A DNA stretch of 64,000 nucleotides, taken from Eledone cirrhosa (lineage: Eukaryota). The notes under the pieces are model-generated. The model was not told the DNA's origin, did no database searches, and saw only the letters and a list, made by a program, of their open reading frames with translations. The DNA is taken from positions 199,020,001 to 199,084,000 of the forward strand of contig OZ024743.1 of the NCBI GenBank assembly GCA_964016885.1, given 5' to 3'. The position numbers were made by a program, and so were the translations under genes. Below are positions 3,721 to 59,385 of the stretch, piece after piece; positions within the stretch are counted from its first letter, which is position 1, and each line of letters begins with the position of its first letter.

Positions 3721-4422
3721 AACGCCCTCTGGTGATGTCCAGCAGAAGCAAGGGGGAAAACCGTCTATGCATTTCAGGATTAACTGGCCTCCGTCAGTTG
3801 AGCCAATTTATGCAGCTTCATATACAAATGAGATTAATCACCTCATTTACACAGACGAGAAAAGTATATATTCTCGCCTGTCTTCTAGACCAGCAGTCGC
3901 AATCGGTGGGAGGGAACGTGCAGACGAAGGCCAGTTAAGCCTGAAATGCAAAGACGGTTGTCCCCCTTGATTCTACTGGACATCACCAGAGGAAGTTAGC
4001 CCCCCCCCCCCCCCCACACACACACACACACACACACCGGTGTTTGCATAGCTACAGCTTCCTAAAGCCGCATTTCTTTGGAGATATGAAATATTTATAC
4101 ATATTGTATAAAGCTATGCTTGAAGAGACATCCTATTTTTTTTTTATTATAAGTTGAGCCAACTTATGCGGCTTCATATGCAAATGAGATCAATCACCTC
4201 ATTTACACAGACGAGAAAAGTATATATTCTCAGCTGTCTTCTAGTCCAGCAGTCGCAAGCGGTGGGAGGGACCGTCCTGACTAAGGCCAGTTAAGCCTGA
4301 AATGCATAGACGGTTGTCCCCCTTGCTTCTGCTGGATATCACCAGAGGGCGTTAGCCCCCGGTGTTTGCATAGCTGCGGCTTCCTAAAACCGTATTTCTT
4401 TGGATATACGAAATATTTATAC
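3721..4422 (+). mobile_element. Hammerhead-containing ~320-nt repeat (candidate retrozyme), locus 1: inverted partial copy (3721-3797, -) plus two tandem units (+)
   Basis: The unit gagccaa..tatgcagcttcatatgcaaatgagattaatcacctcatttacacagacgagaaaag... starts at 3800 and again at 4156. Each unit has accgtc-CTGACGA-aggc-cagttaa-gcct-GAAA-tgca-TA-gacggt or a mutated version (3915-3958, 4271-4314). The array ends in (TA)n. Confidence 0.85.
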
Positions 4423-4473
4423 AAATATATATATATATATATAAACCTATATATAACAATATATATATATATA

Positions 4474-4634
4474 ATAAATTTGAAGACTAAAATCCCAAAA
4501 GGGCTCGATAAGGATAAATATATATCAAATATATAAGAACCGTAGAGCGTTCACAGATTGACTTTGTTAGTTTCATAAGATCCGTTAAGGGTGAAAGCAG
4601 CGATTCTTTGCTTAAACTTTAATCTGTTATTTTA

Positions 4635-4640: not shown

Positions 4641-4689
<49 letters not shown>

Positions 4690-4860
4690 GGAGGTGAGTT
4701 TTATTGTAGTACAATAAAGCAATGCAGATATCGGATAAGAAGCACTCTACAGTTTGTGGGACTGGAGTATGCATAATATAAGATCAAAAGATGGTTAATA
4801 TGTTGATTTAAAACTGCACTATCAACAAGTGTTTTTTAGCCTTCATATCATGTTCTCCTG

Positions 4861-4927
4861 TTTTATCTGATGAAAACACAAATATTATTGCTTGATGATG
4901 TTTGTTTTTGAAATGCGCATAATAAAA
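4861..4927 (+). ncRNA. Minimal type I hammerhead ribozyme motif in a short Penelope-like terminal fragment
   Basis: ttttat-CTGATGA-aaacacaaat...gtttgttttt-GAAA-tgcgca-TA-ataaaa. Stem III region ATGCGCAT is palindromic. Bracketed by a ~26-bp inverted repeat (4773-4798 / 4942-4967) within (TA)n. Confidence 0.75.
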
Positions 4928-4959
4928 TATATGGAACTCCTTTAACCATCTTTTGATCT

Positions 4960-5013
<54 letters not shown>

Positions 5014-10648: not shown

Positions 10649-11195
10649 ATTAATCACCTCATTTACACAGACGAGAAAAGTATATAGTCTCGCCTGTCTT
10701 CTAGTCCAGCAGTCGCAAGCGGTGGGAGTGACCGTCCTGACGAAGACCAGTTAAGCCTGAAATGCATAGCTACAGCTTCCTAAAACCGTATTTCTGTGGA
10801 GATACGAAATATTTATACATATTGTATAAAGCTATGCTTGAAGCGAAATCCTGTTTATTTTTTTATTATAAGTTGAGCCAACTTATGCAGCTTCATATGC
10901 AAATGAGATTAATCACCTCATTTACACAGACGAGAAAAGTATATATTCTCGCCTGTCCTCTAGTCCAACAGTCGCAAGCGGTGGGGGGGGGGGGGGGAGG
11001 ACCGTCCTAATTAAGGCCAGTTAAGCCTGAAATGCATAGACGGTTGTCCCCCTTGCTTCTGCTGGACATCACCAGAAGGCGTTAGCCCCCGGTGTTTGCA
11101 TAGCTACGGCTTCCTAAAACCGTATTTCTTTGGAGATACCAAATATTTATACATATTGTATAAAGCTATGCTTGAAGCGAAATCCTATTTCTTTT
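10649..11195 (+). mobile_element. Candidate retrozyme locus 2: two tandem units (first with internal deletion)
   Basis: acacagacgagaaaag occurs at 10665 and 10924. Hammerhead motifs at 10731-10769 (CTGACGA intact, 3' stem I lost by deletion between tgcatag repeats) and 11001-11044 (core mutated). Confidence 0.85.
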
Positions 11196-12180
11196 ATATA
11201 AATATATATATATATTTATATATATATTTTATATATATATATATTTATATTTATATCATTGTACACATTTGTTTCACAGAATAATCACTTTAACTGAAGC
11301 TAAATAGTTTTAATTTTTGTCAAGATTACAAGTAATTCTGTAATTCCAGATATGGAATCATGATTCAGCTAATTCTCTGTTGTGTGTTGCTGTAGCATCT
11401 TTAATCTCTCTTAGAGTTATTCTTCAGCCGAGGAGAAAGGGAATCGAATGAATCATGTTACGTAGTTGTGTTTATTTGTACGCTACTTAATAATGACTGT
11501 CTCGGGATTTAGATAGTTTATTTGAATTGCTACAGCTCTGGGAAATACCTCAAGGTACATCATCGTTCTTACACTTACGAATTTTTGAAGAAGCTTAGTT
11601 AGAATTGTTTTATTTTTTTCCATATATTTGTTCATGTTCATTTACTAATTTGCTTCGTTTATATATTTATTTATTTCAACATTTATTTAAATTTTTACTT
11701 TACTCTTTTATTTTTTACTTTCCGATTTGTATTTCGTTTGGAAGTTTTTATTTATTTTGCCTGTTTTTTGTCTTTTTCGAATTTCTGAATATCTTAAGAA
11801 AACTGAGAACAGAGGGTATATCTAGGGTTAGGATGTCTCATAAAACGAACTAGATCATGGAATGAGATTCATGCCTGCTCGCCTGTCCGCCTGCCCTAAT
11901 TTGATTGATGTTCTTTATATCCTGCCAGTTGCTATTACTAAGAACAAGCACAGCTTTGCAATTCCATATGAGTGGTATTAAAATCAAAATGTATAGTTAA
12001 GATAGGCAAAGGAACCACCAGTAAGAAATACCAAAATATCAAAATAATAATAATTATGACCATAAACAAACAAAGAAAAAATAATCAAACACCATATTTC
12101 TCATTTCATTTCAAATAATGTCAGAGATTGACTGACCTAAAGAATATCGTTGCTGCTTGTTGGAAAGGAAATACCTTCTC

Positions 12181-12365: not shown

Positions 12366-12613
12366 CTTTCTTTACTAACCATAAGGGTTTACACAAAGTA
12401 GACATTAAAGACAGTACAGGACAATACAGGACGGTACAAAAAAGCATTTCTGCGTGTAAAAAAACAAAAGACAGAGGATGTAATAATAGAACAATGAAAA
12501 ATTCCCCAATAGGGGGGCGACTTCCGAGGAACATTCGTGGAGAAAGCCCATTAAAAGACACAGTGACCCTGACCACCAGGGAAAGTGCCCTCTCCCAGTT
12601 TTCCACCTTTAAT

Positions 12614-15600
12614 TTACAGACACATACTCAGAGTAGGCCCATTCACTCGGGCCATTCTTGCCTCTCTCACCCATCTTTCAACAAAATGCTGGGAAGAGAG
12701 CACTTCTCTCACTACCCTGATTTTCCTTTTCAAATGAAATTTGAAAAAGTTAATCAGGGCATCACCTAAGAGGTAAGTGCTCGTCTTCAGCCCTTTCAAA
12801 CGTGTCCACCATACTATCTCTTTCGCCATGGCCACCAGACAGATAAAAACTGCCTGCCTTTCTCGGCTAAAGGAAGAGGGCGGGGCAATCCTCACGATGG
12901 ACTCAGCTGATAACTGGATCCGTCCTACACACGACAGCAGGTGTTCGACATAAACCCACAAGTCAGCAATGCTCGGACGCTGGACGGTGCGTGCAGGACG
13001 GTTTCGTCGGCTTGCGCACATTTCGGACTTGCCCGGCTGACGGCACCTCCATGCCTGTAGAGTTTATCCCGAACTAGCAAAGCTCCTCGGTAGCACTGCC
13101 AGGCCAGGGATTTCTGGAAGTTGTCCATAGGCCCCGGCCCGAAAGTTCTTCCGAAGAGATTGGCTAGTTGATTTTCGTCGACGCCTAGAGTTTCCCCAAG
13201 TACGTCGTCGCTCTTCCCCTCCATTAATCCCTTATAGAGCCAAGGTGGAGTTTCCACCGATCACATTGCCCGATTCGTCGAGGACTGTGAGCGCCTGAAG
13301 ACATTCCAGTCTCCAAGCGCTCCCTCTCGGTCTTCGCTTGACCCAGGAGACGAGCTGGGGAAAGACGCGTCTAACAAACGGCGACCACACCTGATCACCG
13401 TCGAGGAAGAGATGGAGATGTCGTAGCCTGAGGGCGTGTCTGCGCATCATCAGCCACGGTATGCCCAACCCTCCACGTAGCGGGTGTTAACAGCAGATGG
13501 ACCGCCTGATCATCGGAGCGCGTCCCTTCCACAAAAAGCGAAAGAGCAAACGCTCCAGCGCAGTCAGGCGGGGCTTAGGACAAGGTACGACGGTCAGGCG
13601 GTAGTAGATGACGGACGCGATGTACGCGTTAGCAACCTCCGCTCGACATTTCAGGGATAGCTTCCTCTCCGCCCATTTCTGGGTGAGAGAAGCCACCCTG
13701 CTCGTCACCTCGTCCCAGCTTTTGTCCGTCTCGAGGTCCGGACCGAACCAGACCGCTACCAATTTAACGGGTCCGTCCGTCCAGCGCCCAAGGACGCTGT
13801 TGGACGGCATGGACCTGCCTCTCCAGGTGCCGAGCTGAAGGTCCACTGACTTTTCCTGGTTGATCATTGCTCCTGTCACCGCTTCGTATTCTCTTAGTGT
13901 AGTGCCGATCGCCTCGATGTCTTTGGCGTTCGACACCACTATGGTGAAATCATCCGCATAAGCTGACACGGATCTTCCGCATCATAGTTCGCGCGATACC
14001 CCCCTTAACGTCTCCAGTTTGTGCAGTAATGGCTCGAGATTCAATACGTACAGGAGGGACGAGAGGTGACATCCTTGGCGGACCGAGTGCATGATGTTGA
14101 ATGGTTCCGAAAGGTGACCGTTCACTCTCATCACAGTGCAGACGTCGCTGTGCATGGCAGCGATCCAGCCTCTGAAGACGGGCCCAAAGCCAGCCGCCCT
14201 CAGGACTGCAGCTAGGTAACGATGGTCGACCCTATCAAAAGCTTTCGACTGATCTAAGGACCCACCCGTGCCAGGTTTCCTAGCTACCCTCTCTACGATG
14301 TATCGCATAAGGTGGAGGTTGTCGTGGATGGATCTGTCGAGAATAGCGCACGTCTGCGCCTCTCCCACCAGACCACCAACGATAAGTGCCAAACTCTTTG
14401 CTAGCACCTTGATCCAAAATCTTGAACTCTGTGTTTAGCAGAGTTATGGGCCTGAAATTATCTATGTTATCCCCCTTGTTCGGATCCTTTCTCAGCAGCG
14501 CCACAGCTCCTCGGCTCACAGAGCTGGGAATTCTCCCGTTCTGTTGCCAGTTGCAGTATACGTCCGCCAAGAGGCCTCCCGAACAAGTCTGGCATCTGTA
14601 CGTAAAGTTCAGAGGGCAGACCATCCAAACCAGGCGATTTACCCCTTGTGCAGCCATTCATTGCCTCCCGTACTTCACCGGCTGTTATCGGCTTTTCGCA
14701 ACACTCCGCCCCAGTTCCCGAGAGCCTCGGCAGTCCGTCGAGGTAGACACTAAATCCATCCCTTGATCCGGCCCGCCCTGCCCTCGAACAGCTGTGCGAA
14801 ATGTCGCTGGAAAGCTTCACACATTTGCCCGGGATCAAGTAGCATGCGCCCGTCGTGGTCCACCAAAGACTGGATCGTGGCTTTGTTGCCACAACGCGCC
14901 TCCGCCACTCGGGCCCATTGAACGGCTTTCGTCCCCTCGTGTCTGAGATCACGCACCCTAGCTCTGACAACGCAGCCTTCGTGCTTTGCATTGAAGAATT
15001 GGTCCATAGCCAATTTCACCGCAAGTACGTCGGTCGCGATGACTTTGCTAAGCGCCTCGTCTAATTTTCTAACTAGTTCTCCCTCTGCTCTATTTTTCTC
15101 TATTGCTAAAGCCTTACTAAACCTAATGGACTCTATTCTAATCGCTCTTTTCAGAGCAAACCACCACTTGCTGTTGACGATGGCCCCCGTCAACGCCCGC
15201 TTAACTAGTTCGCTAATCCGGTCTCTGTAGGCCTTGCGCGCTGGTAAAGACACGTTTAGCTTCCAGTAGCCGGGTCCTCGTTTATGCAGCCTATCTAAGT
15301 CAACCACACAGATCACGACATTGTGGTCCGTGTAGCTGACTATCTTGAATTGAGGACAGCCTATGCTAGACCTATCTATTTCCCTACAAAATACTCTATC
15401 TAGATATGATCCACATTGGCACTTTTGGGAAATCCAATCGGTACCTGTTAGACAGTTCAAAACACCTGAGCCCCTATCCGCTAATCCCACACAGTCCCAG
15501 CGTGCATCTAAGATCCCGTTCCAGTCGCCCACCAACACTAAAGAGCGGGACGTTCCAAGAAAGGTCTCCTGAAGCCGGAAGAAATGAGGCCGCCCTGCAC

Positions 15601-15947
15601 CTGTCGGGGCATAGACGGCCACTATCCTGAAAGCTTGCCCGTCTCCGCTGGTCACGTCCAGCACCACCAACTTACCTTCTGGGTCCAAGAATATGGCCCG
15701 TATGGCGAGATCCAAACCTCTTCGAAAAAGCTAAGCAACTCCTTCCCCCCGATCCAGGACGGCTGGGAGATGCGTACACATCGTAGCCGACGAAGATCGG
15801 TGCGAAGGCCCGTGCTTCGGAGATTCTGGTCTCGCTGATGGCCACTGCATCTATGTTTAGTGAACTGAGGTCGTTGAGCAGGTGGCCCTGCTTCCATGAC
15901 GACCCCAAGCCACGCGCATTTATGCTGCCTATTTTGAGTGAGGTCAT
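12614..15947 (-). pseudogene. Tx1-like ORF2 (APE endonuclease + reverse transcriptase), frameshifted
   Basis: Motifs across successive ORF pieces: MTSLKIGSINARGLG..AISET, VAVYAP, GDWNGILD, LDRVF, YTDH, PGYWKLN, GKSPGLDGLP, NFRPITLLNTEFKIL, LDQSKAFDRVDH, VRQGCHLS, AYADD. Confidence 0.92.
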
Positions 15948-18126: not shown

Positions 18127-18333
18127 AATAATAATAATAATAATAATTGTTTCTACTTTTGGCACAAGGCCAGCAATTACCCAGTACATTACTGGTACTT
18201 TATTTCATCGACCCCGTAAGGATGAAAGGCAAAGTTAACCTCGGCGGGATTTGAACTCAGAATGGCAAGGGCCGTAACTCTATGCGTCAAAGCATGGCGT
18301 CCGACCCTCTACCGATACTGCCAGTCCACCGCC
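18127..18333 (-). mobile_element. Full-length main-family tRNA-derived SINE
   Basis: Minus strand: ggcggtggactggcagtatcggtag (A box-like), ctgagttcaaatcccgcc (B box), gcctttcatccttacggggtcgat body, and an (ATT)n tail abutting the Tx1 5' end. Confidence 0.9.
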
Positions 18334-18351
18334 ATAATAGTAATAATAATA

Positions 18352-27359: not shown

Positions 27360-27546
27360 TGGATTGGCAGTATCGGCAGAGGGTCGGACGCCATGCTTTG
27401 ACGCATAGAGTTACTGCCCTTGCCATTCTGAGTTCAAATCCCGCCGAGGTTAACTTTGCCTTTCATCCTTAAGGGGTCGATAAAATAAAGTACCAGTAAT
27501 ACACTGGATAATTGTTGGCCTTGTGCCAAAAGTAAAAACAATTATT
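27360..27546 (+). mobile_element. Main-family tRNA-derived SINE
   Basis: tggattggcagtatcggcagagggtcggacgcc..gagttcaaatcccgccgagg..gccttgtgccaaaagtaaaaacaattatt. Confidence 0.9.
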
Positions 27547-30670: not shown

Positions 30671-30839
30671 ACGATTCCTCCTTATCTGCCAGTTAAGTGC
30701 AGGTAGAGAGTGAAGGGTGGAGGGTCGTCCTCTCCCTACAGACCCAGGCTATTGTTGACATTTTCTCAACACTTCTAGAAAACGTTTCACCTTTTGCTTC
30801 TCTTTATATTTCCCTCCCTCTCCCCTTCCTTCCCGTCCA

Positions 30840-33475
30840 CCACCAGCAACATCATCATACCTAACACCACTACCACAAGAACATCACAACTACTTCCACC
30901 ACCACCGCCACTATCGTCACAACTACCATCAACACCACCAACAACATCATAACTTTCAACAACACAAACAGCATTACAATTAACACTGCCACTAACAACA
31001 ACAACACTATCACTAACAACATCACAGCTAACACCACCATCGACACAACAACCATCAACACAAACAACAACACCACCAACATCACAATTAACACCACCTC
31101 TACCACCAACAACAACACCACTAGCACTAAGAACATTACAACTAACACCACTATCGTCACAACTACCATCAACATCACAATTAACACCACCACTACGACC
31201 AACATCACAACTAACACCACTATCGTCACAACTACAATCAACACCCTCAAAATCACAATTAACACCATCCCTACCACCAACAACAACAACACCAGCAATA
31301 AGAACATCACAACTAACACCACTATCGCCACAACTACCATCAACATCACAATTAACACCACCACTACGACCAACATCACAACTAACACCACTATCGCCAC
31401 AACTACCATCAACATCACAATTAACACCACCACTACGACCAACATCACAACTAACACCACTATCGTCACAACTACCATCAACGCCACCAACATCACAATT
31501 AACACCACCACTACCACCAACAACAACAACACTACCGCCAAGAAGATCACAACTACCTCCACCATCACCACCGCCATCGTCACAACTACCATCAACGCCA
31601 CCAACATCACAATTAACACCACCACTACCACCAACAACAACACCACAACACTAAGAACATCACAACTAACACCTCTATCGTCACAACTACCATCAACATC
31701 ACAATTAACACCACCACTACAACCAACAACAACACCACTAGCACTAAGAACATCACAACTAACACCACTATCGTCACAACTACCATCAACACCCCCAACA
31801 TCACAATTAACACCACCACTACGACCAACATCACAACTAACACCACTATCTTCACAACTACCATCAACACCACCAACATCACAATTAACACCACCACTAC
31901 CACCAACAACAACACCACAACACTAAGAACATCACAACTAACACCTCTATCGTCACAACTACCATCAACATCACAATTAACACCACCACTACGACCAACA
32001 TCACAACTAACACCACTATCGTCACAACTACCATCAACACCCCCAACATCACAATTAACACCACCACTACCACCAACAGCAACACCACTAGCACCAAGAA
32101 CATTACAACTAACACCACTATCTTCACAACTACCATCAACACCACCAACATCACAATTAACACCACCTCTACCACTAACAACAACACCACTAGCACTAAG
32201 AACATCACAACTAATACCACTATCGTCACAACTACCATCAACACCACCAACATCACAATTAACAACAACACCACCACCAACAACAACAACACTAGCACTA
32301 AGAACATCACAACTAACACCACTATCGTCACAACTACCATCAACACCACCAACATCACAATTAACAACAACACCACCACCAACAACAACAACACTAGCAC
32401 TAAGAACATCACAACTAACACCACTATCGTCACAACTACCATCAACAACACCAACATCACAATTAACACCACCTCTACCACTAACAACAACAACACTACC
32501 GCCAAGAAGATCACAACTACCTCCACCATCACCACCGCCATCGTCACAACTACCATCAACACCACCAACACCATCATAACTGTCAACAGCACCACCAACA
32601 TCACAATTAACACCATCACCACCACTATGACAGCCACTACTACTACCACAACTAGCGTGACAACAAAAACCAACATCACAACTACCACCTCCACCACCAA
32701 CAACAACATTAACACAGCCAACATTACCAGCACTGCCACTACCACATCAACAACAAAAATAACAACAGCAACTAATTGCAAGAACCACCACCAATCCAAC
32801 TATAACGACCACCACTATCAACACAACTACCACACCCACCAACACTACTACCATTACTAATACAACTACAACCACTGCCACCACCACCACCATCACCAGG
32901 AACGCAACAACCACCACTATCACCACCATCATCACCATCACCGCTGCCACTACTATCGAAACCACCACCATCACTACTACCACCACCAACACCATCCCCA
33001 CCACTGCTACCACAGCTATCACCACCGCCAACACCACTGCTACCAAAACACCACCTCCACTACCACCACCACCGCCACCACCACCAACAACAACAACAAC
33101 ACCATCCCCACCACCATGACTAACACAACAACTACCACCACCAATACCCTCCCCACTACTGCTTCCACCACCACCAAAAACAACACTGCTACCGCCACCA
33201 ACAACAACATCCCCACCACCAACAACAACATTGTTACCACAATAGCTACCACCACCAACAACATCCCACCACCACCATCAACAGCAACACTGCTACCACC
33301 ACCAACAGCATCCCCACCACCACCATCAACAACAACACTGCTACTACAGCTATCACCACCACTGCTACCACCACCAACAACAACACTACTACCACCACTA
33401 ACACTATCCCCACCACCACCACCACCAACAACAACAACACTACCACCACTGCCACCATCACCACAATCCTTAATT
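30840..33475. repeat. A/C-rich triplet-derived minisatellite with 60-102-bp higher-order units
   Basis: Repeating aacatcacaactaacaccactatcgtcacaactaccatcaac..aacatcacaattaacaccaccactac, decaying into (ACC/AAC)n distally. Confidence 0.9.
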
Positions 33476-34239
33476 CCAATGTAGTATCGATATAAAGACA
33501 GGTGAAATCTCTGATGACTGTTGTGTGTTATAGGCGAAACATGAAGTCAAAATGTTAAAAGAAAACCAAAATAAAACAGTAAAAAAAGGCAATCAAATAA
33601 AACAAAAAAAAAAAGATATAAAAAGACAAACAAAACAAAACATAAAAAGAAAAGAATTATCAAAAATAGAAGAAAAAAAAGACATGAAACAGCCCAAAAA
33701 ACAAACAAACCAAGAAACAAATATCTATACAATCCTTAACCTCCCTCCTCTTCCGCTTCTTACGTTACTTCACCCTCTTCCTACCACCCTCTAGTTATCG
33801 TTTCCTCCCAACCTCACATGAAATTATTTCAAAAAGGTTGACAAGCTCATTCCTTCATCTGGAAGTCCTAGCCTGCTAGCTCCTGTCTCTTTTCTTACTT
33901 GTTGACTTTTTACTCAAGAAATCCTTTAAAATGGTTCACTGAGCATTTTCAAGTACCTTAGCCTTGTTTTCATAATAAATAAGCACTGAATTCAGCCGCC
34001 AGGTATTGCTGGAGTCAATTTTGAAATATGTGCCCTAATAATCGTGCCGTATGTGCAGTATATATACACATACACACATATACACAAATACATATGTAAA
34101 CAGACGCTCATACATACACTTATATACATACGTACATTCATACACATTTACACATACGTACAGAGACGCACATACATACACTTATATACAGACGTACACA
34201 GACACACGTGCATACACGTATATACACACACGTACATAG

Positions 34240-35075: not shown

Positions 35076-35355
35076 TATGCAGCTTCATATGCAAATGAGA
35101 TTAATCACCTCATTTACACAGACGAGAAAACTATATATTCTCAACTGTTTTCAAGGCCAGCATTCGCAAGCGGTGGGACGGACAACCCAGTGAAGCCTGA
35201 AATGCATACACGGTTGTCCCCCTTGCTTCTGCTGGACACCAACAGAGGGCGTTAGTCCCGGTGGTTGCGTAGCTACGGCTTCCTAATAACGTGTTTCTTT
35301 AGAAATACGAAATTTCTATACATATTTTTATAAAGCTATGCGTGAAGCGAAATCT
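35076..35355 (+). mobile_element. Candidate retrozyme locus 3: single decayed unit
   Basis: Same unit sequence, with the 5' half of the hammerhead core deleted (ggacggacaacccagtgaagcctgaaatgcata). Confidence 0.8.
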
Positions 35356-38060: not shown

Positions 38061-40585
38061 TGGGAGAATTAGTTAGAAAATTAGACGAGACGATTAGCAA
38101 AGGCATCGCGACCGACGTACTTGCGGCGAAATTGGCCCTTGGCCAATTCTTCACTGCAAAGCACAAAGGCTGCGTTGTCAGAGCTAGGCTGCGGGCTCTC
38201 AGACACGAGGGGACGAAAGCCGTTCAATGGGCCCGAGTGGCAGTGGCAACAAAGCCACGATCCGGTCTTTTGTGGAGCACGACGGGCGCATGCTACTCGA
38301 TCCCGGGCAAATGTGTGAAGCTTTTCAACGACACTTTGCTCAGCTTTTCGGGGGCAGCGGCGGGCCGGATCGAGGGATGGATTTAGTATCAACCTCGACG
38401 GAGTGCCGCGGCTCTCGGCCACTGAGGCGGTGTGTTGCGAAAAGCTGATGACAGCCGGTGAAGTACGGGAGGCAATGACTGGCTGCACAAGGGGTAAATC
38501 GCCTGGTTTAGATGGTTTACGTACAGATGCCAGACCAGTTCGGAGGCCTCTTGGCGGACGTCTACTGCAACTGGCAACAGAACGGGAGAATTCCCAGCTC
38601 TGTGAGCCGAGGAGCGGTGGCGCTGCTGAGAAAGGATCCGAACAAGGGGGATAACAGATAATTTCAGGCCCATAACTCTGCTAAACACAGAGTTCAAGAT
38701 TTTGGCCAAGGTGCTAGCAAAGAGGTTGGCGCTTATCGTTAGTGGTCTGGTGGGAGGGGCACAGACATGCGCCATTCCCGACAGATCCATCCACGACAAC
38801 CTCAACCTCAAGCGATACATCGTAGAGAGTGTAGCTAGGGAACCTGGCACGGGTGGGTCTTTGATTAATTTAGATCAGTCAAAAGCTTTCGATAGGGTCA
38901 ACAATCGTTACCTAGCGGCAGTCCTGAGGGCGGCTGTCTTTGGGCTCGTCTTCAGAGGCTGCATCGCTGCTATGCACAGCGACATCTGCTCTGTGCTGAG
39001 AGTGAACGGTCACCTCTCGGAACCGTTCAACATCATGTGCTCGGTCCGCCAAGGTCTCCTCTCTCGTCCCTCATGTACGTATTGAATCTCGAGCCATTAT
39101 TGCACAAACTGGAGACGTTGAGGGGCGTCCCGCGCGAACTAGAATGCGGAAGATCGGTGTCAGCATATGCGGACGATGTCAGCGTAGTGGTGTCGAACGC
39201 CAAACACATCGAGGCGATCGGCACTATAGTAAGAGAATACGAAGCGGTAACAGGAGCAATGATCAACCAGGAAATGTCAGTGGGCCTGCAGCACACCACC
39301 TTGAGAGGCAGGTCCATGCCGTCCAACAGCTTCGTCGGGCGCTGGACGGACGGACCGGTTAAATTGCTAGGAGTCTGGTTCGGTCCTGACCTCGAGACGG
39401 ATAAAAACTGGGACGAGATGACGAGCAGGGTGGCTTCTCTCACCCAGAAATGGGCGGAGAGGAAGCTATCCCTGAAAGGTCGAGCACAGGTGGCTAACGC
39501 GTACATCGCGTCCGTCATCTACTACCACCTGACCGTCGTACCTTGTCCTAAGCCCCGCCTGACTGCGCTGGAGCGTTTGCTCTTTCGCTTTTTGTGGAAG
39601 GGACGCGCTCCGATGGTCAGGCGGTCCATCTGCTGTCAACACCCGCTACGTGGAGGGCTGGGCATGCCGTGGCTGATGATGCGCAGACACGCGCTCAGGC
39701 TACTACATCTCCACCTCTTCCTCGACGGTGATCAGGTGTGGTCACCGTTTGCTAGACGCGTCTTTCCCCAGCTCGTCTCCTTGACGGAGGTGCAGTCCTG
39801 GGTCAAGCGAAGACTGAGAGGGAGCGCTTGGAATGTCTTCAGGCGCTCACAGCCCTTGACCAATCGGGCAATGTGATCGGTGGAAACTCCACCATTGCGT
39901 TCTATAGAGGATTGGTGGAGGGGAAGAGCGACGACGTACTTGAGCGACGACGCACTCGTCCAGTTTCCGAGCATTGCTGACTTGTGGGTTTATGTCGAAC
40001 ACCTGCAGTCACGTGTAGGACAGATCCAGCTATCAGCTGTGTCCATCGTGAGGATTGCCCCGCCCTCTTCCTTTAGCCGGGAAGGGCAGGCAGTTTTTAT
40101 CTGTCTGGTGGCCATGGCGAAAGAGATAGTATGGTGGACACGTTTGAAAGGGCTGAAGACGAGCACTTACCTCTTCGGTGATGCCCTGATTAACTTTTTC
40201 AAATTTCATTTGATAAGAAAAATCAGGGTAGAGAGGGAAGTGCTCGCTTCCCAGCATTTTGTTGAAAGATGGGTGAGAGAGGCAAGTATGGCCCGAGTGA
40301 ATGGGCCTACTCTGAGTTTGTGTCTGTAAATTGAAGGTGGAAAACCGGGAGACTGGGACTTGCCCTGGTGGTCAGGGTCTCTGTGGCCTTTTAATGGGCT
40401 TTCTCCACAAATGTCCCTCGGAAGTCTCCCCCTTATTGGGGAATTTTTCATTGTTATTTTTTTCTTACATCCTCTGATTTTGTTTTTTACACGCAGAAAT
40501 GCGCATTTGTACCGTCCTGTATTGTCCTGTACTGTCTTTAATGTCTACTTTATGTAAACCTTTGTGGTTAATAAAGAAAGCATTA
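38061..40585 (+). mobile_element. 5'-truncated Tx1/L1-clade LINE, same family as 12.3-18.1 kb
   Basis: Colinear with the reverse complement of about 15085-12362. Motifs LINLDQSKAFDRV, AYADD, KLLGVWFG and C-terminus RVNGPTLSLCL, plus the 3' UTR. An internal deletion lies near 39950. Confidence 0.93.
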
Positions 40586-40752
40586 GGACACCATGCTTTG
40601 AAGCTTAGAGTTACGTCCTTTTATGATCTGAGTTCAAATCTAGCCGAGGTTAACTTTGCTTTTCATCCTTAAGGGGTCGATAAAATAAAGTACCAGTAAT
40701 GTACTGAGTAATTTCTTGCCTTGTGCCAAACGTAGAAACAATTATTATTATT
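40586..40752 (+). mobile_element. 5'-truncated main-family SINE fused directly to the Tx1 3' end
   Basis: aaagaaagcatta|ggacaccatgctttg..gagttcaaatc..gccttgtgccaaacgtagaaacaattattatt. Confidence 0.85.
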
Positions 40753-40848
40753 ATCATTATCATTGCCATCATATTCTTCCCCATCAGTAACATCATCATA
40801 ATTATTATCATCATCATCACCATCATCCTCACTATCACCATCATCACC

Positions 40849-43928: not shown

Positions 43929-43964
<36 letters not shown>

Positions 43965-43971
<7 letters not shown>

Positions 43972-44658
43972 TTTCGTATCTCCAAAGAAATACAGTTTTA
44001 GGAAGCCGCAGCTATGCAAATACCGGGGGAATAACGCCCAGCAGAAACAAGGGGGGGGGGCCCAAACGTCTATACATTTCAGGCTTAACTGGCCTTCGTC
44101 AGGACGGTACCACCCACTGCTTGCGACTGCTGGTCTAGAAGACAGCTGAGAATATATACTTTTCTCGTCTGTGTAAATGAGGTGATTAATCTCATTTGCA
44201 TATGAAGCTGCATAAATTGGCTCAGCGTATAATAAAAAAAAATAGGATTTCGCTTCAAGCATAGCTTTATACGGCTTCCTAAAACTGTATTTCTTTGGAG
44301 ATACGAAATATTTATGCTTGAAGCGAAATCCTATTTCTTTTTATTATAAGTTGAGCCAATTTATGCAGCTTCATATGCAAATGAGATTAATCACCTCATT
44401 TACACAGACGAGAAAAGTATATATTCTCAGCTGTCTTCTAGTCCAGCAGTCGCAAGCGGTGGGTGGGACCGTCCTAACGAAAGCCAATTAAGCCTGAAAT
44501 GCATAAACGGTTGTCCCCCTTGCTTCTGCTGGACATCACCAGAGGGCGTTAGTCCCCCGGTGTTTGCATAGCTACGGTTCCTAAAACTGTATTTCTCTGG
44601 AGATACGAAATATTTATACATATTGTATAAAGCTATGCTTGAAGAGAAATCCTATTTC
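43965..44658. mobile_element. Candidate retrozyme locus 4: head-to-head inverted pair (43965-44272 -, 44270-44658 +)
   Basis: Both arms match the unit. cctatttc recurs at 44330 and 44651, giving a 321-nt period. Flanked by (TA)n on both sides. Confidence 0.88.
44065..44108 (-). ncRNA. Minimal type I hammerhead ribozyme with intact core (retrozyme family)
   Basis: Minus strand: accgtc-CTGACGA-aggc-cagttaa-gcct-GAAA-tgta-TA-gacgtt. Confidence 0.8.
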
Positions 44659-44721
44659 TATATATATATATAATTATAAAATGACAGGAGGCTGGACTGG
44701 TGTAATTCCTTAAAGATTTAT

Positions 44722-45880: not shown

Positions 45881-45896
45881 ATTACTATATATATGT

Positions 45897-46090
45897 GGCG
45901 GTGGATTGGCAGTATCTGTAGAGGGTCGGACGCCATGCTTTAACGCATAGAGTTACGGCCCTTGCCATTCTGAGTTCAAATCCCGCCGAGGTTAACTTTG
46001 CCTTTCATCCTTACGGGGTCGATAAAATAAAGTACCAGTAATACACTGGGTAATTGCTGACCTTGTGCCAAAAGTAGAAACAATTACTAT
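45897..46090 (+). mobile_element. Full-length main-family tRNA-derived SINE
   Basis: ggcggtggattggcagtatc..gagttcaaatcccgcc..gtgccaaaagtagaaacaatt; attactatatatat on both sides is a possible TSD. Confidence 0.9.
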
Positions 46091-48679: not shown

Positions 48680-48733
48680 AGAGAGAGAGAGAGAGATAGA
48701 GAGAGAGAGTAAGAGAGAGAGAGAGGGAGAGAG

Positions 48734-48888
48734 ATAGGATTTAGCTTCAAGCAAAGCTGTATACAGATATGTATAGAAATTTCGTATTTCTAAAGAAACT
48801 CGTTATGTTTACAGGGTAAACATTTAGAAAGCCGTAGCTATGCAAAAATCACCGGGGCTAACGCCCTCTGGTGGTGTCCAGGAGAAGC
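48734..48888 (-). mobile_element. Candidate retrozyme locus 5: partial unit
   Basis: Reverse complement reads tgcttctcctggacaccaccagagggcgttagccccgg..tgcatagctacggctt..gaaatacgaaattt..gcttgaagctaaatcctat. Confidence 0.75.
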
Positions 48889-50403
48889 ATATATATATAT
48901 GAGATAAATTTGTTAATATTATCCATCTATTAAGGTAATTGAAAAGAAACAATATTATTCTAATATATAATCGTTTAGTGTTGAAGAGAAAAATAAGGAT
49001 TACAATATCAAAAAGGGAGAAAGGAAAATGGGAATTTACTAATGAAACGAAGGAAGGGAGTGAAGTAAAGACACATTCTAGACCCTTGGTTGTATTTCAG
49101 CCGTGCCCACGGAAAACTGACAAAGGCATTACCACTGAAGAAAGACCGGTGAACCGTGCTGCATCAGACATTCCACATCATGTGGTGCCTTCTTGAGGCA
49201 GGATGCGCTTTTCCAGAATTTGATGAGGAAAACGGCAATGCGAGGATTTAGAACATATGTGATCTTAATGACGACTGGTACGAAAATAAGCAGTCGGTCA
49301 AATCGAGGAAATTGCTCCTCTGCATTAATGGTGCCAGTGTCCAGATAGACATTTTGCAGAATGCTGCATCCCCGATTAGGGATTTACCTCCTCAAACTGG
49401 AAAAGGATTATCCAGTCTGGGAACTTATCGTCACTATGGTCGACACCGGCAGGTTCCAGTTGTACGTGGAAGCCTGACATCATGTATACTCAAGGCAGTG
49501 GGTAATCCTCCATTGTTATGTTTCTATACTAACATGGGTTGGTTGGGTTTGTAAAACAGCTTCATTCCTACAGTATTCCCTGATCCCATATTAGATTTTT
49601 TAGTGACTTCTAAACAAAGATAGTAAAATACTTTAACATATGTTGTTATATGACACAGTATACTCTTCTATCATGTTGCTACTTCCAAATTAACACTTAA
49701 GTCAACGTCATCAAGTTCAAAATTAAAACATATATTTATATACGTAATGTTTTAATTAAGTTATTTAATTAATCATAGCTACTTTAAATAATCTCTTAAT
49801 TAGTTTAGTTATACATCTCCTTCATTTACACCTCTTAACCAATCAAAAACTGTCACCACTTCAATATCATCCAATATCGTTTCTATGTAACAACTAATTA
49901 AACTCTCTCTCCAAGCTAGCATATGGTGAACTACTTTTGAGGCCTTATATCCATCATTTTTTTATTGGGATTCGTCGTAAATCATAAACAAAATTCCAGA
50001 CACCATGTAGCGTATTTTGCTCAATATTCCAAACTTTTTGTATATGGTTACATGTATTCTCAAAACCTGGAAACTCTTAAGATATTGGGAAGAAAATTAT
50101 TATATTTATTCTAAAAATATTTCTATAGTCAGTAATATTTACAACATTGATGAGTAAGGAAAAGAAAAGAAAGGGCTTTCTTCGATCATGACTGGCCATG
50201 GGCTACACACCAATGACTGACTAACCATGGATTTGCTTCTGTGAGTCAAAAGTTGGTCATGGTGTTTTGTGGAAGATTGAATGTAGACTATGTATGAAAG
50301 TCTCACTATTTTATGACAATGATGTTGTCCAAGTGAATGAGAAATGGAGCTTGGCATAAATAGAGAGATAATTGTTTAGATATATAGATAGATAGATAGA
50401 TAT

Positions 50404-53190: not shown

Positions 53191-54547
53191 CATTTTAGTT
53201 TAAATCATTGTAAGATGCGTAATAAATGATAAGATGTTCGGAAAACCGATACAATGCGGGTAGCAATATATATATGGTGCTGCAGTAAAAGGATGACAAA
53301 ATAAAACAAAACAAAATGTGTTTACCCAATATATTTCCTCGTGATATATACCTTCTTTAAATGAATGCAGAAAATATTATATGTAGTGTGTGTGGTAGAT
53401 ATATGGTGTGCTCCTAAACAGAGCAGTCCTAATAGCGATCTCTGTTCTTTTGTAGATTTTTGTATCTCCGTTCTATTATTGATGTTAGCTCTCTGCATGT
53501 TTATAATTATAGCTTCCTTAATTCGTAAATTCCCACCACCCTCTCTGTCGCCTCTAAGATGTCCTTATGCACTTCTGCAGATTTTTTTGATGAGACAGTT
53601 ATGAAATGTATATATATTGTTGTATATATGGAGTGGGGTTGCTATAGAGTAGTTTATCTCGGGAGAAACACCACCAAGAAGAGCAAGTAGGACAGCCGAC
53701 CTAATGATAGCATATTCTGTCTCAAGCTGCCAAATTTCAATGAGAGAACAACAGCTGCCACCCGACAATCTATCCGTAGTGACGGTCTGAACATACAACA
53801 GGAGACAACTATGTATGCATATATATATATATATATATATAAATATAAATTAGCGAGAATCGTTTTCAGCTCAGGAATTAACGAAAATCAACGTCCGATA
53901 TGTGTGGCAAGCGCTCGATGAATCATATGAATCAGAGCTACAACATACGTTAAGGGCCAAACACACTGAGATGATGGTTAAACATATCATCCGCACAGCC
54001 AAAATTAAAACGACCAAGTAATTCGGGTCAAACAATAAAAATATATGTGTTGATACTTTCCCGGACCCTATATATATATATATATTTAAAAGTTAAAAAA
54101 CAAGGTTCAATGAATACATTAAAGAATGAGTTTTACAATAGATTGGAAGCACTCAACAGTGAGGTTTTCCAGAGTTATTAATATTAATTCAAAATATTAA
54201 CAAAATATATATTCTTGTGATCAATTATATTTTATTATACATATTTCAGAGGTACTGAGTTAAGTTCAACAGTACGTCTTGATCAGATAAAATAAAATGA
54301 TACATGACATACCCTGACATAGTAGATGGTTAAGATTCAGTCATGGTAGTGATTAACTTATGACAAAACTCAATATTTATACCCTAATATTGAGAACATG
54401 AGATAACATAATACAAACAATAGAGAGGGTACGTGTAATAGAGTTTAAGAAATACATGGCATCAATATAAAAGTTATAACATTTTTAATTTTAAAATATG
54501 ACTGAATTTTAACCATCTACTATGTCAGGGTATGTCATGTATCATTT

Positions 54548-54614
54548 TATTTTATCTGATGAGGACGTACTGTTGAACTTAACTCAGTACCTCTGAAATA
54601 TGTATAATAAAATA
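54548..54614 (+). ncRNA. Type I hammerhead ribozyme in the 5' pLTR of the Penelope-like element
   Basis: tattttat-CTGATGA-ggacgtactg..cagtacctct-GAAA-tatgta-TA^ataaaata, with predicted cleavage after 54606. Copies at about 54235-54295 (-, CTGATCA) and 59061-59127 (+, CTCATGA) have mutated cores. Confidence 0.8.
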
Positions 54615-54803
54615 TAATTGATCACAAGAATATCTATTTCGTTATTATTTTGAATTAATATTAATAACTCTGGAAAACCTTTTCTGTTGAGTATTTCCTA
54701 TCTATTGTAAAACTCATTCTTTGATGTATTCATTGAACCTTGTTTAACTGCTCCCAGCAGGTTGAGCGCTTTTCTCTACAATAGATTGCATATTTAATAA
54801 ATT

Positions 54804-57069
54804 ATGGAATTCTTAACCTTCCCGACATCGCTCAAGGATATACCTATACCATCTAATGAGGAATACATGAGGAAAATTATTGAACAAACAAACTCTTTTA
54901 TAAGAAGAGTGAGATGGCGAACATTTCATTTCGATAATAAAGAAGCTAAAAGAAAAACCAACATCAATCATTTCGAAACTTTATTTAAATCAAGAAAGAA
55001 TCCTCCATACAGCAAACTCCTGGAGGATTTTGAAACTGAAATGCTCGGTATACTTAAGAAAATTAAATTCAGGAAAAACCCATATATAGGTCACCAATAC
55101 CTTAGAACTTTAAAATAAAAAATCTCGGAAATAAAAAAAGTTAATAAAATATTGGTAAAATCAGACAAAACAAATAATTTATATGGGATAAATAAAGAAG
55201 AATATAATAACTTGATTTTAAAAGAACTAAGGAACAATTATAGAAAAGCTCCGGCCGAAGATCTTACAGACATCAATAATGATGCATATAAATTAATTGC
55301 AAAGTTAGGAATTGAAGAAAGAACCGAGCCTCTTATACCTAGACAGCCGAGGATAAATTTTAAAGATCACAAAATAAATTTTGTGGAAGACTTGCCAGTT
55401 AGACTGATTGCTCCATCTAAATCGGATATTGGAGTAATCAGTAAGAATATTATTGATAGAATTCTACCTATTTTGAAATTGAGGTCTAAATTGAGCTTGT
55501 GGAAGGATACAAATGAAGTGATTGAATGGTATAAAAATAGAGATGATAAGAAAAACCGTAAATTCATCCAGATAGACATAACAAGCTATCACTCTTCCAT
55601 TACGCCTAACCTACTAAATAAGGTTTTATCATACGCTTACAAACATACTGATCTAACTACGGATGAAATTGATATCATATTAACTGCTAGAAGAACTCTA
55701 ATTAACTTCAACAATGACTATTGGACCCGCTCAGATAGAAATATAAACTTCGACATTACCATGGGATCATCTGATTCAGCGCAAATCACGGATCTTCTGG
55801 GGATTTTCATCTTAAATATGATAAATAGAAAACTGCCGGAGATTACCGGTGGTTTATATAGGCACGATATTTTATTTACGGTTGTTAAACACAACAATAT
55901 AGAACTAAATAGGGTAAAGAAGAATATAATTGAATTCTATAAAAATTAAGACCTTAAACTAGAGGTAGAAAGTGGTACCAAAATAGTTAATTTCCTTGAT
56001 GTTACCCTTAACTTAAACTCTGGTTTTTATTACCCTTTCCATAAGCCCAATGAAAACTTAAATTACGTTAATTATTACTCTAATCACCCTAAATCTGTGA
56101 AAAAGGCAATTGTAAATAGCGTACAAAACGCATAAATAGAATATCTGCCAATAAATCAATATTTGATGAACATGCAAGTTATTACAATGATGCGCTAAAA
56201 AAGGCAGGTTATAAAAATAATATAGAATATATAGACAATAATAATTCGAGTATTAATCCTGATAAAAATAATGGCATATATAAACGAAATTCTACAAATT
56301 CTAATAATTGTAATTCAAACACCTGTACTGTGAATAAATCGGGGAAAAGAACCAGATCTAAATCAGTTATATGGTTTGCCCCACACCCCCTGCTTCTGTA
56401 GCAGTAAGAACACCAATAGCTAATCTATTTTTTAAAGCTTTAGATAGTTCATTCCCTAGTCAACTTAAATACCACTCCATAGTTAATAGACACACAATTA
56501 AACTGTCTTATTCTACAACTATGAATATGGCCCAAAACATCGCTAAAATAAACAGTATAATTCTAAACCAAAATCAACATAATGCTATTAATAATAGTGT
56601 TAATATAAATAATAATAAATCAAAATGTAATTGTAGAAATAAACCAGATTGCCCTCTGCAAAATAATTGTCTGGATAGAAATCTGGTGTATAAATGCACC
56701 GTAAAAACAAATAACAACACATACAACTACATAGGAGCAACTTCTTCGACATTTAAATCGAGATTTGCGAATCACAAATGCTCATTATCGAATTTTAATA
56801 GGAAGTCTTCGACTTCTTTATCACAACTTATATGGTCATTAAAAGACAAAAATTTAAAATACTCGATCTTTTGGACGAAGCTTTGTAATAGTAAAATATA
56901 TACCAACTCATCCATATCAATTAACTGCAACCTCTGCACAAAGGAGACCCTATTAATAATTAATAATTATGAAAACTTAATTAACAAAAAATGTGAATTT
57001 TTCTCAAACTGCCTTCATAAAGCTTTGTCTACATTCCAAGCCTCGCAAAAAGTCAGGAAAAGACAGTAA
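54804..57069 (+). pseudogene. Penelope-like RT + GIY-YIG endonuclease ORF, disrupted
   Basis: Motifs SLKDIPIP..FIRRVRW, VKSDKT, FIQIDITSY, TMGSSDS, GLYRHD (YRDD mutated), VNFLDVTL, SNHP, CNCR..CPL..CL..LVY..YIG..FKSRF..H and CNLC..E. TAA stops at 55116 and 55947; frameshifts near 56128 and 56380. Confidence 0.9.
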
Positions 57070-59385
57070 ACAATCAGGCCTGATTTTTTACGTCTCTTAT
57101 CAACTGTTGGACATAACAAGTCATAACGGTTTATAAAACTTTAATAATGCTTTATCTTCTAATCATTTATGATAGAATTAATGTTAGAATGAAGGACACA
57201 CGTTTGATAACTTGTTTACTTGATAAATATACATACCTTATGATTTTTTGGATATTTATAATTTTGATTCAGATCTTTATTTATCTGTCTCTGTTTTAAA
57301 TATATAGTTTGGATATTTGACTTATAAATTTACTGATTATAATTGAACTGTGGATCATTCATGCGTTTGCATATTTTATATATTTTATTCATTTTGAGTA
57401 TGTTTTGGGGGACTCAGAAAGTTAGATTTGCTTTTGGGTTTTTTTACGTATATCTATGTATAAATATAACAAATCATAATAGCCGACAAATATTGGTCTA
57501 TCTCTCCACTAAACTGGAGGTAAAACTACAATTATAGCATTACTAATAATGATTATAATTATTATTCTTTATTAAATGTATACCGTTTCATTAATACCTA
57601 TAATAATATCTCTATATAGTTGTACAAATATCTTTATCTAGTGCAATAACATAATCGTAGTTACATTTATGAATAATTTAGACACAGGAATAATTTAGAC
57701 ACATGACTTTATATTGTTATAAGTGTTTGATATTCCCTGGAAGGTCGAACTTATATAATCATTTACTTAATATAATATAATTTAATTTAAATTATTTTAT
57801 TTTATTTTATTTTATTTTAATTAAATTTAGATTAACTTCGGCTTTTTCAAATATTTAGCCCCTCATTATATCACATTCGCTAAAATATTTTAGATATATA
57901 TTTTCTATACTATATTAAAACCCTATTGCATTTATAATATATTTTTAATATTTGGCATCTTTAAGTGTCGCAAACAATTCATTTTCGTTTATTTGTATAT
58001 TTATTTTGTATCTAGCCCCTATCATTAGGACTCATATAGTTTTGACTTATATCTTTATAGTATATATCAACTAAATGAAAATAATTGATATAAAACATTA
58101 ATTATTTAGCAATATTTTTAACAACATTTTTAACTATATATATTTTTTAACAATATTTTCAGTAACTTATTTACTATATTGCATTATTGCATTATTATAT
58201 TATATTATATTATATATATTTGAAAGGTATCACCTCAATTATAAACAAATAATAAACTATAATCTTTGTATTTTTTTATCAATACATATATATAATTAAA
58301 AATCGAACCTCTTTAAGTTTAGTTATAAGGCCGGTTGATACTTTAGGCACTCAAACTATTTAACAATAAATTCTTTAATAATTATAACTATAATTATTTT
58401 ATAAATTATATTATAGAAACTGTTGTCAATATTATAAATAATTTTGGTAAAGATTAACTTCGTGAAGATAGAAAAACATTATATATATTTTCTTTCTCGT
58501 GTTTCGTAAATCCTTTAAATTTGTTTTCATAAAATTTGAATTTTAGAAATTAAACATAATTATATTATAATATTAATACAAATACCTATTAACTTTTAAA
58601 ACCTAAAATATTATTCATTACCCTGGAATAACTTAAATTAAATATTTTGAAAATTAACCGCCAACTATATTATTTTGGACATGTTTTGCAAATATGGAAA
58701 TCTGTGTATATAAACTTGAACATAAATTACTCCCTTTTGTCTCTCTCTCTCTCTTTAATCATCTTTAATCTGTTTCTTCAATCCACCTACTAAATATATT
58801 ATCACATCAGCTATTTCTTCCTCTATGCTTTCCTTTCCCTCCTCTTTCTCCAGTAGTTTTTAAAAATTAAATATTTTATAACTGTTAAATTGATGCCATG
58901 TATTTCTTACTCTCTATTACACGCACCCTCTCTATTGTTTGTATTATGTTATCTCATGTTCTCAATATTAGGGTATAAATATTGAGTTTTGTCATAAGTT
59001 AATCACTACCATGACTGAATCTTAACCATCTACTATGTCAGGGTATGTCATGTATCATTTTATTTTATCTCATGAAGACGTACTGTTGAACTTAACTCAG
59101 TACCTCTGAAATATGTATAATAAAATATAATTGATCACAAGAATATCTATTTTGTTAATATTTTGAATTAATATATATATATATATTGTAATACACATAT
59201 ATACATATGTATATACATAGAGAGAGTGAAGGAGAGGGATATATAAATATATATGTATATATATATGCAAAAGTTCTATTTAAAATTGTTGGGATGCAAC
59301 AAGTAAATATTTTATAACTGATATAAAGCACTCGACAAGTTTTTTGAGTAGATATACGATATTAAATAAATGGAAACTATATTTA

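Follow-up and report, generated by a model that had tools for sequence, protein, structure and literature searches.

The window analysed here is a stretch of 64,000 nucleotides of the Eledone cirrhosa genome, and the locus in question occupies its positions 3721 to 4422. Judged by its sequence, this locus is a decayed, dead copy of a dispersed hammerhead repeat with a unit of ~323 nt. Mapped on a natural 323-nt period (locus L002), it is composed of two arms joined 5' to 5', an inverted arm of 77 nt (3721..3797, minus strand), which covers unit positions 146-222 and bears a partial hammerhead, and a plus-strand arm of 593 nt. The latter comprises a first unit (3796..4131, unit positions 21-323) and a second unit (4132..4421), which terminates at a tail-less 3' end, designated 'short' below. 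A C/CA microsatellite expansion in the first unit (~4000-4037) lengthens the period within the locus to 356 nt, and the two units carry different alleles at the diagnostic positions 101-102.

Both units of the plus arm contain a promoter-like block followed by a hammerhead on the same strand. In the first unit the block (3821..3872) consists of a U6-type box with one substitution (3821-3832) and a TATA-like word (3864-3872), and the hammerhead (3915..3958) is broken by core substitutions at 3922 and 3951 and by mismatches in stem I. In the second unit the block (4177..4228) consists of a U6-type box (4177-4188) and a TATA-like word (4220-4228), the starts of which are 42 nt apart. The second hammerhead (4271..4314, predicted cleavage site at 4308/4309) has intact stems I and II and an intact palindromic stem III, and its core G8 is substituted (4282). 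A (TA)n tract (4422..4475), the likely target site, lies at the 3' end of the plus arm; no target-site duplication is visible at this locus. The locus is adjoined at 4686-4960 by a different hammerhead-bearing repeat, with its core at 4867, a long helix II and an 8-nt palindromic helix III, which was found again in L040, L042, L134 and L179.

The initial annotation had described a non-coding unit with a 321-nt period at five loci of the window. BLAST within the window found the unit at all five, with boundaries refined to 3721-4421, 10649-11199, 35076-35354, 43959-44659 and 48730-48889. The period measured at 44325/44646 is indeed 321 nt, and no ORF of 150 aa or more occurs across the five loci. 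The second locus (10649..11199, plus strand) is a partial tandem with an internal deletion and a tail at (TA)n, and the third (35076..35354, plus strand) is a single diverged unit (86%) from which the hammerhead core has been deleted. The fourth (43959..44659) comprises two back-to-back arms, the left end being short and the right end having a tail, both in (TA)n. The fifth (48730..48889, minus strand) is a 3' fragment with a tail and resembles the older subfamily B described below. Other repeats in the window are a LINE-like element in two copies of opposite orientation (12591-15730 and 38062-40352, 90-95% alike, with weak endonuclease and RT Pfam matches), a long ACC/AAC-rich tandem region at 30800-33500 (periods 102, 171 and 240, with threonine-rich open frames of up to ~350 aa), and a dispersed repeat of ~190 nt, 89-96% alike, at 18128-18334, 27360-27546, 40586-40760 and 45896-46090.

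The unit of 323 nt (GC 0.42) defines a subfamily that we call A. A 21-nt word of the unit has 945 exact occurrences in the 3.0-Gb genome. Since the first 100 of these matches represent 74 loci, and since the word is present in 21 of 59 loci picked otherwise, subfamily A probably amounts to ~2,000 loci, an estimate that is likely low. The older subfamily B (~340 nt, 75-85% identity to A) gave 2,970 candidates at first look. Copies of A sampled across the genome deviate from the column majority at 2.6% of positions, in a sample that leans toward well-preserved copies, and show CpG decay and no strand bias. Scars of RNA editing were not in excess in A copies (A>G 0.67% vs T>C 0.88%).

The five window loci lie within 45 kb (3721-48889), compared with about one or two loci per Mb elsewhere. 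Only one A locus was present in 59 evenly spaced 10-kb stretches, and none in the 20 flanking 10-kb stretches that cover 200 kb around the window. The five loci in 64 kb thus form a local cluster, which overstates the genome density more than 10-fold. Clustering occurs elsewhere too, with 4 gaps of less than 64 kb vs 1.3 expected. Local copying was considered as the cause of the cluster and rejected, as the window loci are different haplotypes and the sharing of rare variants among them (16/240 vs a 2% background) is unconvincing. The unit is also present as contigs in four runs of one study, of which the run kind is unrecorded; a tail-to-head joint in run X4 exists in DNA as well and is therefore uninformative on circles. 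A still older relative of the unit was noticed at L345:8678-8893. Its helix II has lost 9 nt and its helix I shows one more paired change; the helix II deletion predominates in the contigs of run X4. At L137:7398-8323, three identical hammerheads, two of them 465 nt apart and one inverted, represent another retrozyme-like family.

The hammerhead of the family has the core, the stems and the palindromic stem III that had been proposed for it, and the exact 42-nt motif occurs 268 times genome-wide. It had also been called minimal, which does not hold. Helix I of 6 bp, helix II of 4 bp and a short palindromic helix III are the canonical metazoan type I form according to the available part of PMC4209133 (2014), whereas in the minimal PLE-type hammerhead, as far as the sources at hand describe it, helix III is absent or minimal, helix II long and helix I short. 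Helix II of the present motif is closed by a loop of 7 nt, and the palindrome of helix III measures 6 nt. From 29 BLAST-picked loci, two further loci and the window, 62 matches to the hammerhead region were collected, 52 of them full-length, and 42 passed a test of core plus stems. None of the eight copies of this region in the window is perfect. A relaxed descriptor found a hammerhead in 1 of 5,000 shuffles of the unit. An Rfam search, suggested as a check, returned no hammerhead in the window (E<=1) or in the intact copy L002 (E<=10).

The initial annotation had listed a lack of stem covariation across copies among the signs against its reading; the stems do covary between subfamilies. Comparison of A with B shows changes on both sides of four pairs, three in helix II and one in helix I, and variation of the core is confined to the free positions N7 and H17. 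We aligned 42 of 78 extracted motifs, namely those of 21-mer-picked and BLAST-picked loci; loci chosen through a hammerhead pattern were excluded, as were a few motifs in which the flanks were shifted. In this alignment 92% of the cells pair, and its covariation score was reached by 0/500 shuffles, its count of double-change pairs by 35/500. The covariation reflects one subfamily split (A/B) and no independent events, and the invariance of the core in the alignment is partly built in, as extraction demanded an intact core. Folded as a circle, a natural monomer is predicted to be more stable than all of 100 shuffles (z = -5.2), with helices I and II formed, and the predicted circular folds of 11 natural monomers have z values of -3.0 to -6.4 in 10 cases. 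Two intact cores one period apart were found at 2 of the 67 loci picked by the 21-mer. In a minor variant of A (14/118 pieces; L203, L204, L206, L209, L226 and L227), a U-U mismatch occupies the base of helix II, a feature described for one axolotl retrozyme hammerhead (PMC7229834). A reservation on cleavage comes from a 2026 preprint (bioRxiv 10.64898/2026.07.22.740005), in which only 1 of 9 predicted Xenopus dimers was cleaved in vitro.

The genomic copies have a constant geometry. Among 124 distinct A loci, 77 consist of back-to-back arms with their 3' ends outward, and none of convergent arms. The 3' ends of A arms fall in two phases ~40 nt apart, at unit positions ~284-305 ('short') and ~327-349 ('tail'), the ends being blurred by TA microhomology. 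Exactly one tail is present at 48 of the 51 two-armed loci for which both ends could be classified, and the 26 others have one end at another phase. The same picture was obtained from the 67 loci picked only by the 21-mer, 44 of which are two-armed, with a one-sided tail in 24/26; in this set 73 of 111 outward 3' ends lie in (TA)n, compared with 7.8% of random positions. Subfamily B has a one-sided tail in 10/12. Arms extend beyond one period in 82/217 cases, the longest measuring 742 nt or 2.3 units, and no long arrays were seen. The copies are dispersed two-armed insertions, not satellite or tandem arrays.

Partial tandems, an inverted 5' copy, a tail of 30-40 nt at one end and (TA)n targets are hallmarks of Penelope-type elements (PLEs) in the consulted part of PMC8557442. 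The unit carries this insertion footprint, and the geometry by itself makes a PLE enzyme the likely agent. A repeat moved at the DNA level, of the foldback or satellite-like kind, with an incidental hammerhead, could also display inverted arms and microsatellite flanks and would not be at odds with the lack of an Rfam match. We consider it extremely improbable, given that it does not account for fixed 3' ends combined with variable 5' ends, for the one-sided tail or for the compensatory changes in the ribozyme. A tRNA-derived SINE was likewise considered and rejected, as there is no tRNA-like head; ARAGORN predicted 0 genes in the window, and no Rfam tRNA match was obtained in the window or in the intact copy.

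At least two large and abundant families with a PLE-type RT are present in the genome. The first includes a degenerate autonomous PLE-type element in the window (54060-59180), with an inverted 5' repeat, terminal repeats in direct orientation at 54498-54680 and 58851-59179, an end in (TA)n, RT and GIY-YIG frames that are broken (55119-57069), a different hammerhead of its own at 54556 and a tail of ~100 nt by look. This family numbers 28,640 candidates. The second, young family (L343, L344 and L345; 17,794 candidates) is characterised by open frames 981-1,099 aa long and by a tail of ~45-50 nt that is not always present, and is a candidate source of the enzyme. The closest named relative of a PLE-type protein from this genome is from Octopus vulgaris (68% identity), the next matches being at most 47% identical. 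Searches of Pfam and PDB did not name the PLE proteins, which we take to be such from their RT and GIY-YIG motifs; their homologues carry PF26215/PF28514, and there is an RT-like atlas match as well.

If the unit were the pseudo-LTR of an autonomous PLE, and the copies its 5'-truncated ends, the PLE geometry would follow directly, and the available text of the 2026 preprint does tie Xenopus retrozymes to pseudo-LTRs. The initial annotation had raised this as one way in which its own reading could fail. No ORF body is attached to any examined copy, and 34 free 5' flanks have no common body upstream of the unit. The 82 of 217 arms that run past one period enter the preceding unit. In the search for a partner, the unit or its profile was compared with 30 + 30 PLE loci, 6 longer ones, the window PLE and 79 10-kb stretches, covering two PLE families and ~0.8 Mb of sampled DNA, and no sequence shared with the two PLE families was found. 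The hammerheads of these two families differ from that of the unit, and the U6-type box is absent from their ends. Derivation of the copies from such an element therefore appears very unlikely, within the two families and the DNA searched. Unit copies near PLEs (L109, L179/L258 and L345) were examined as possible parts of these elements and proved to be insertions in their own right, which lie at 600-900 nt from the ORF or outside the (TA)n end that belongs to the PLE. Two hammerheads 5.1 kb apart on contig C2, considered as pseudo-LTRs, are two similar inverted insertions, with no PLE frame in the surrounding loci.

Two words of the unit recur in the upstream regions of host U6 genes. One is a 12-nt box that contains an octamer and lies at about -77, the other a TATA word at -31. 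This layout was found in 4 of 6 inspected U6 loci (out of 15 fetched), the four representing three distinct promoter types, and the best of 8 U6atac loci shows it with one change. The two U6 loci and the seven U6atac loci that lack it have lower scores or lie in microsatellites, and may be retrocopies. No box lies within 300 nt of the 6 U1 loci (20 fetched) and the 2 U2 loci (12 fetched) examined, and TA-rich words occur near -31 in U1 and U2 loci too. In 1.18 million sampled strand-bases the box was met 5 times, 4 of them in a family designated C. Shuffling of the unit produced box plus TATA word in 0 of 5,000 cases and the box alone in 5. The host snRNA genes form clusters (L290-L300, L305-L314 and L333-L342) with tandem periods of ~1.8 kb for U6, ~2.2 kb for U2 and ~2.7 kb for U1; the U1 and U2 loci have a different short word in common near -57.

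The promoter reading rests on these two positioned words, since local alignment of the whole unit to U6 and U2 upstream regions was mostly non-significant when compared with shuffles. Taking the U6 distance of 31 nt between the TATA word and the start, transcription is predicted to begin near unit position 120. On sequence grounds, each unit is likely to be self-transcribing from a U6-like promoter, and the box favours polymerase III. Family C, a relative of 429 nt, carries the same two words upstream of its own hammerhead, as A and B do. About six head-to-tail units of this family and an inverted 5' piece were observed ~30 kb past the end of the window (L132:9020-10000 / L133:1-1620; G000:C4 ~199,113,000-199,115,600), with a predicted circular fold of z -6.2. 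Family C occurs in 6 of the 59 sampled stretches and is thus more abundant than A.

Several details of the block deviate from a U6 promoter. The spacing of box and TATA word is 41-42 nt in the unit vs 45-47 nt in U6, in most B copies the TATA word is without its first G, and both words lie in or on predicted RNA hairpins. T runs stop RNA polymerase III, and the T6 run present at 29 of 37 internal junctions of subfamily A would tend to end a polymerase III RNA before a full monomer has been made. A retrozyme with the PLE footprint but without a working promoter of its own, or read by polymerase II, would agree with these details: the U6-like words would be hairpin arms overlapping the predicted structures, the RNA would arise by read-through, and the spacing 3-6 nt below that of U6 and the T6 run in the unit speak for it. 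Retrozymes seem to be without promoters according to a 2020 review (PMC7761336), and newt satellite 2 is described as transcribed by polymerase II from an snRNA-type promoter (as cited in PMC2220036). We nevertheless regard this explanation as unlikely, because RNA structure leaves unexplained a 12-nt match to a box that host U6 and U6atac loci have at a constant position, that is lacking in the examined U1 and U2 loci, and that was found outside family C once in 1.18 million strand-bases.

The arms themselves give information on the template that was copied. The distance from the cleavage site down to the priming sites is 110-165 nt, and a cleaved linear monomer could therefore yield only short arms ending at position 178. 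Yet most primed arms run through this site (68/93, with two passages in 8), and 5' ends do not pile up there (2 vs 3.6 expected). The template was not a cleaved linear monomer. It was likely an RNA circle, which we prefer since selection on the ribozyme would imply that it was cleaved RNA that spread. Opposite arms of a locus agree in their alleles, in 49 of 49 pairs for position 261 and in 22 of 24 for 101-102 (the pairs are not independent), and they share 15% of rare variants vs 2% between loci. This sharing is consistent with one source per insertion, and gene conversion could contribute to it. An excess of 5' ends at positions 1-22 was considered as a sign of two primers blocking each other on one circle and rejected as selection bias, the counts being 20 vs 7.8 in the full set and 6 vs 3.8 in the 21-mer-picked set; the two arm lengths per locus are uncorrelated.

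Some observations would agree better with a PLE-mobilised repeat whose template was a linear transcript, two or three units long, that had been cleaved in part or not at all. Tandem same-strand units differ at diagnostic sites in 2/7 and 2/26 pairs, at two loci including 3721-4422, which counts against a single circle since one circle cannot give two haplotypes. Arm lengths drop steeply beyond 450 nt, a length above 600 nt is reached by a single primed arm among 174, and long arrays were not seen; furthermore, the weak stem III should slow cleavage. On the other hand, such a transcript ought to leave 5' ends at its start, and these number 8 vs 5.9 expected at the predicted position, with no pile-up, while several arms reach upstream of it. 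The compensatory ribozyme changes imply that cleavage mattered for spread, and as a circle the complete unit gives a much better predicted fold than its shuffles. We therefore hold the linear template to be possible but rather unlikely, and retain the circle.

By its testable sequence features, the family is a metazoan non-LTR retrozyme. This remains the best reading of a non-coding unit with a covarying type I hammerhead, as the initial annotation had proposed, with the amendments that the hammerhead is not minimal, that the copies are dispersed insertions rather than tandem arrays, that those at 3721-4422 are dead, and that the PLE insertion footprint and the U6-like promoter block had escaped notice. 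We consider it fairly probable that the family is a non-LTR retrozyme with a U6-like promoter in each unit, which spreads as self-cut circles written by a PLE enzyme into (TA)n through two-sided priming. In such a cycle, the box and TATA word of one unit would start an RNA near position 120, ~20 nt ahead of the hammerhead. The RNA from a locus of at least two units would be cut at 177/178 of successive units, likely by a dimeric ribozyme in view of the 6-nt palindrome in stem III (as may be deduced from PMC4209133 and PMC7229834). The monomer would then hold the promoter of the next unit inside it and would adopt the predicted compact fold as a circle. A PLE enzyme, as suggested by the geometry, would cut (TA)n and prime at two TA-rich RNA sites ~40 nt apart. 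Priming at two sites would give two arms joined 5' to 5', one with and one without the tail, and copying beyond one turn would restore a promoter followed by two ribozymes, so that a few new insertions would be competent sources.

We advance more tentatively, as a proposal with somewhat less than an even chance, that this is a self-promoting circular retroelement, in which the ribozyme cut permutes the U6-type promoter of the next unit into the circle, this one circle then being copied by a Penelope enzyme from either side of a DNA break. It would then be chimeric, built from a host snRNA promoter, a hammerhead and an end recognised by PLEs, rather than a pseudo-LTR that has shrunk, and would have lasted through at least three successive subfamilies, alongside a distant relative of 429 nt.

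The retrozyme class itself is already known. Literature searches on cephalopod hammerheads, Penelope elements, circular RNA and retrozyme promoters brought up no account of this family or of its combination of features; paper supplements, Dfam or Repbase may list it. The family provides countable genomic evidence on two points left open in the retrozyme papers at hand, the mobiliser and the source of transcription. PLE mobilisation is proposed, not shown, in PMC7229834, the main text of which does not contain the word 'inverted', and PMC7761336 likewise proposes PLEs as the mobiliser; circular templates, too, are put forward in these retrozyme papers without demonstration. The family also supplies test material: copies preserved intact in the genome, a start site that can be predicted, a pair of priming sites, and long open frames for two candidate PLE enzymes.

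Like the metazoan non-LTR retrozymes of PMC7229834, as its accessible text presents them, the family has a non-coding unit in the 170-400-nt range with a GC content of 42%, a canonical type I hammerhead, a compact predicted circle, and PLE-type elements in the same genome. Unlike them, it is dispersed, with at most 2.3 units per arm and mostly two back-to-back arms, and it has a one-sided tail in (TA)n and a U6-like block in each unit. The 2026 preprint (Li, Clavereau and Pollet), according to its available part, covers retrozymes of 31 vertebrates, 3 insects and a coral and argues for their PLE origin from co-occurrence and pseudo-LTR homology. The present family resembles these retrozymes in being non-autonomous, in its many monomeric or near-monomeric copies, in the scarcity of copies with two intact ribozymes and in its tie to PLEs, but here the evidence is insertion geometry, and pseudo-LTR homology was not found. 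With PLEs, as described in the parts of PMC8557442 and PMC4209133 at hand, it has in common partial tandems, an inverted 5'-truncated copy, a tail at one end, (TA)n targets and a type I hammerhead, and it differs from them by the lack of an ORF, by its canonical hammerhead and by its host snRNA-type promoter block; a circular template has been proposed for PLEs in PMC4209133. Finally, the putative promoter inside the unit ahead of the hammerhead, with the resulting need for a tandem, is shared with newt satellite 2 and with the schistosome hammerhead SINE-like repeats, in so far as the accessible texts describe them. Newt satellite 2 (cited in PMC2220036) has a polymerase II snRNA-type promoter and forms satellite arrays, whereas the present block matches U6/U6atac; the schistosome repeats (cited in PMC6765202) are described as polymerase III-transcribed, and to these the present family adds a documented PLE footprint.
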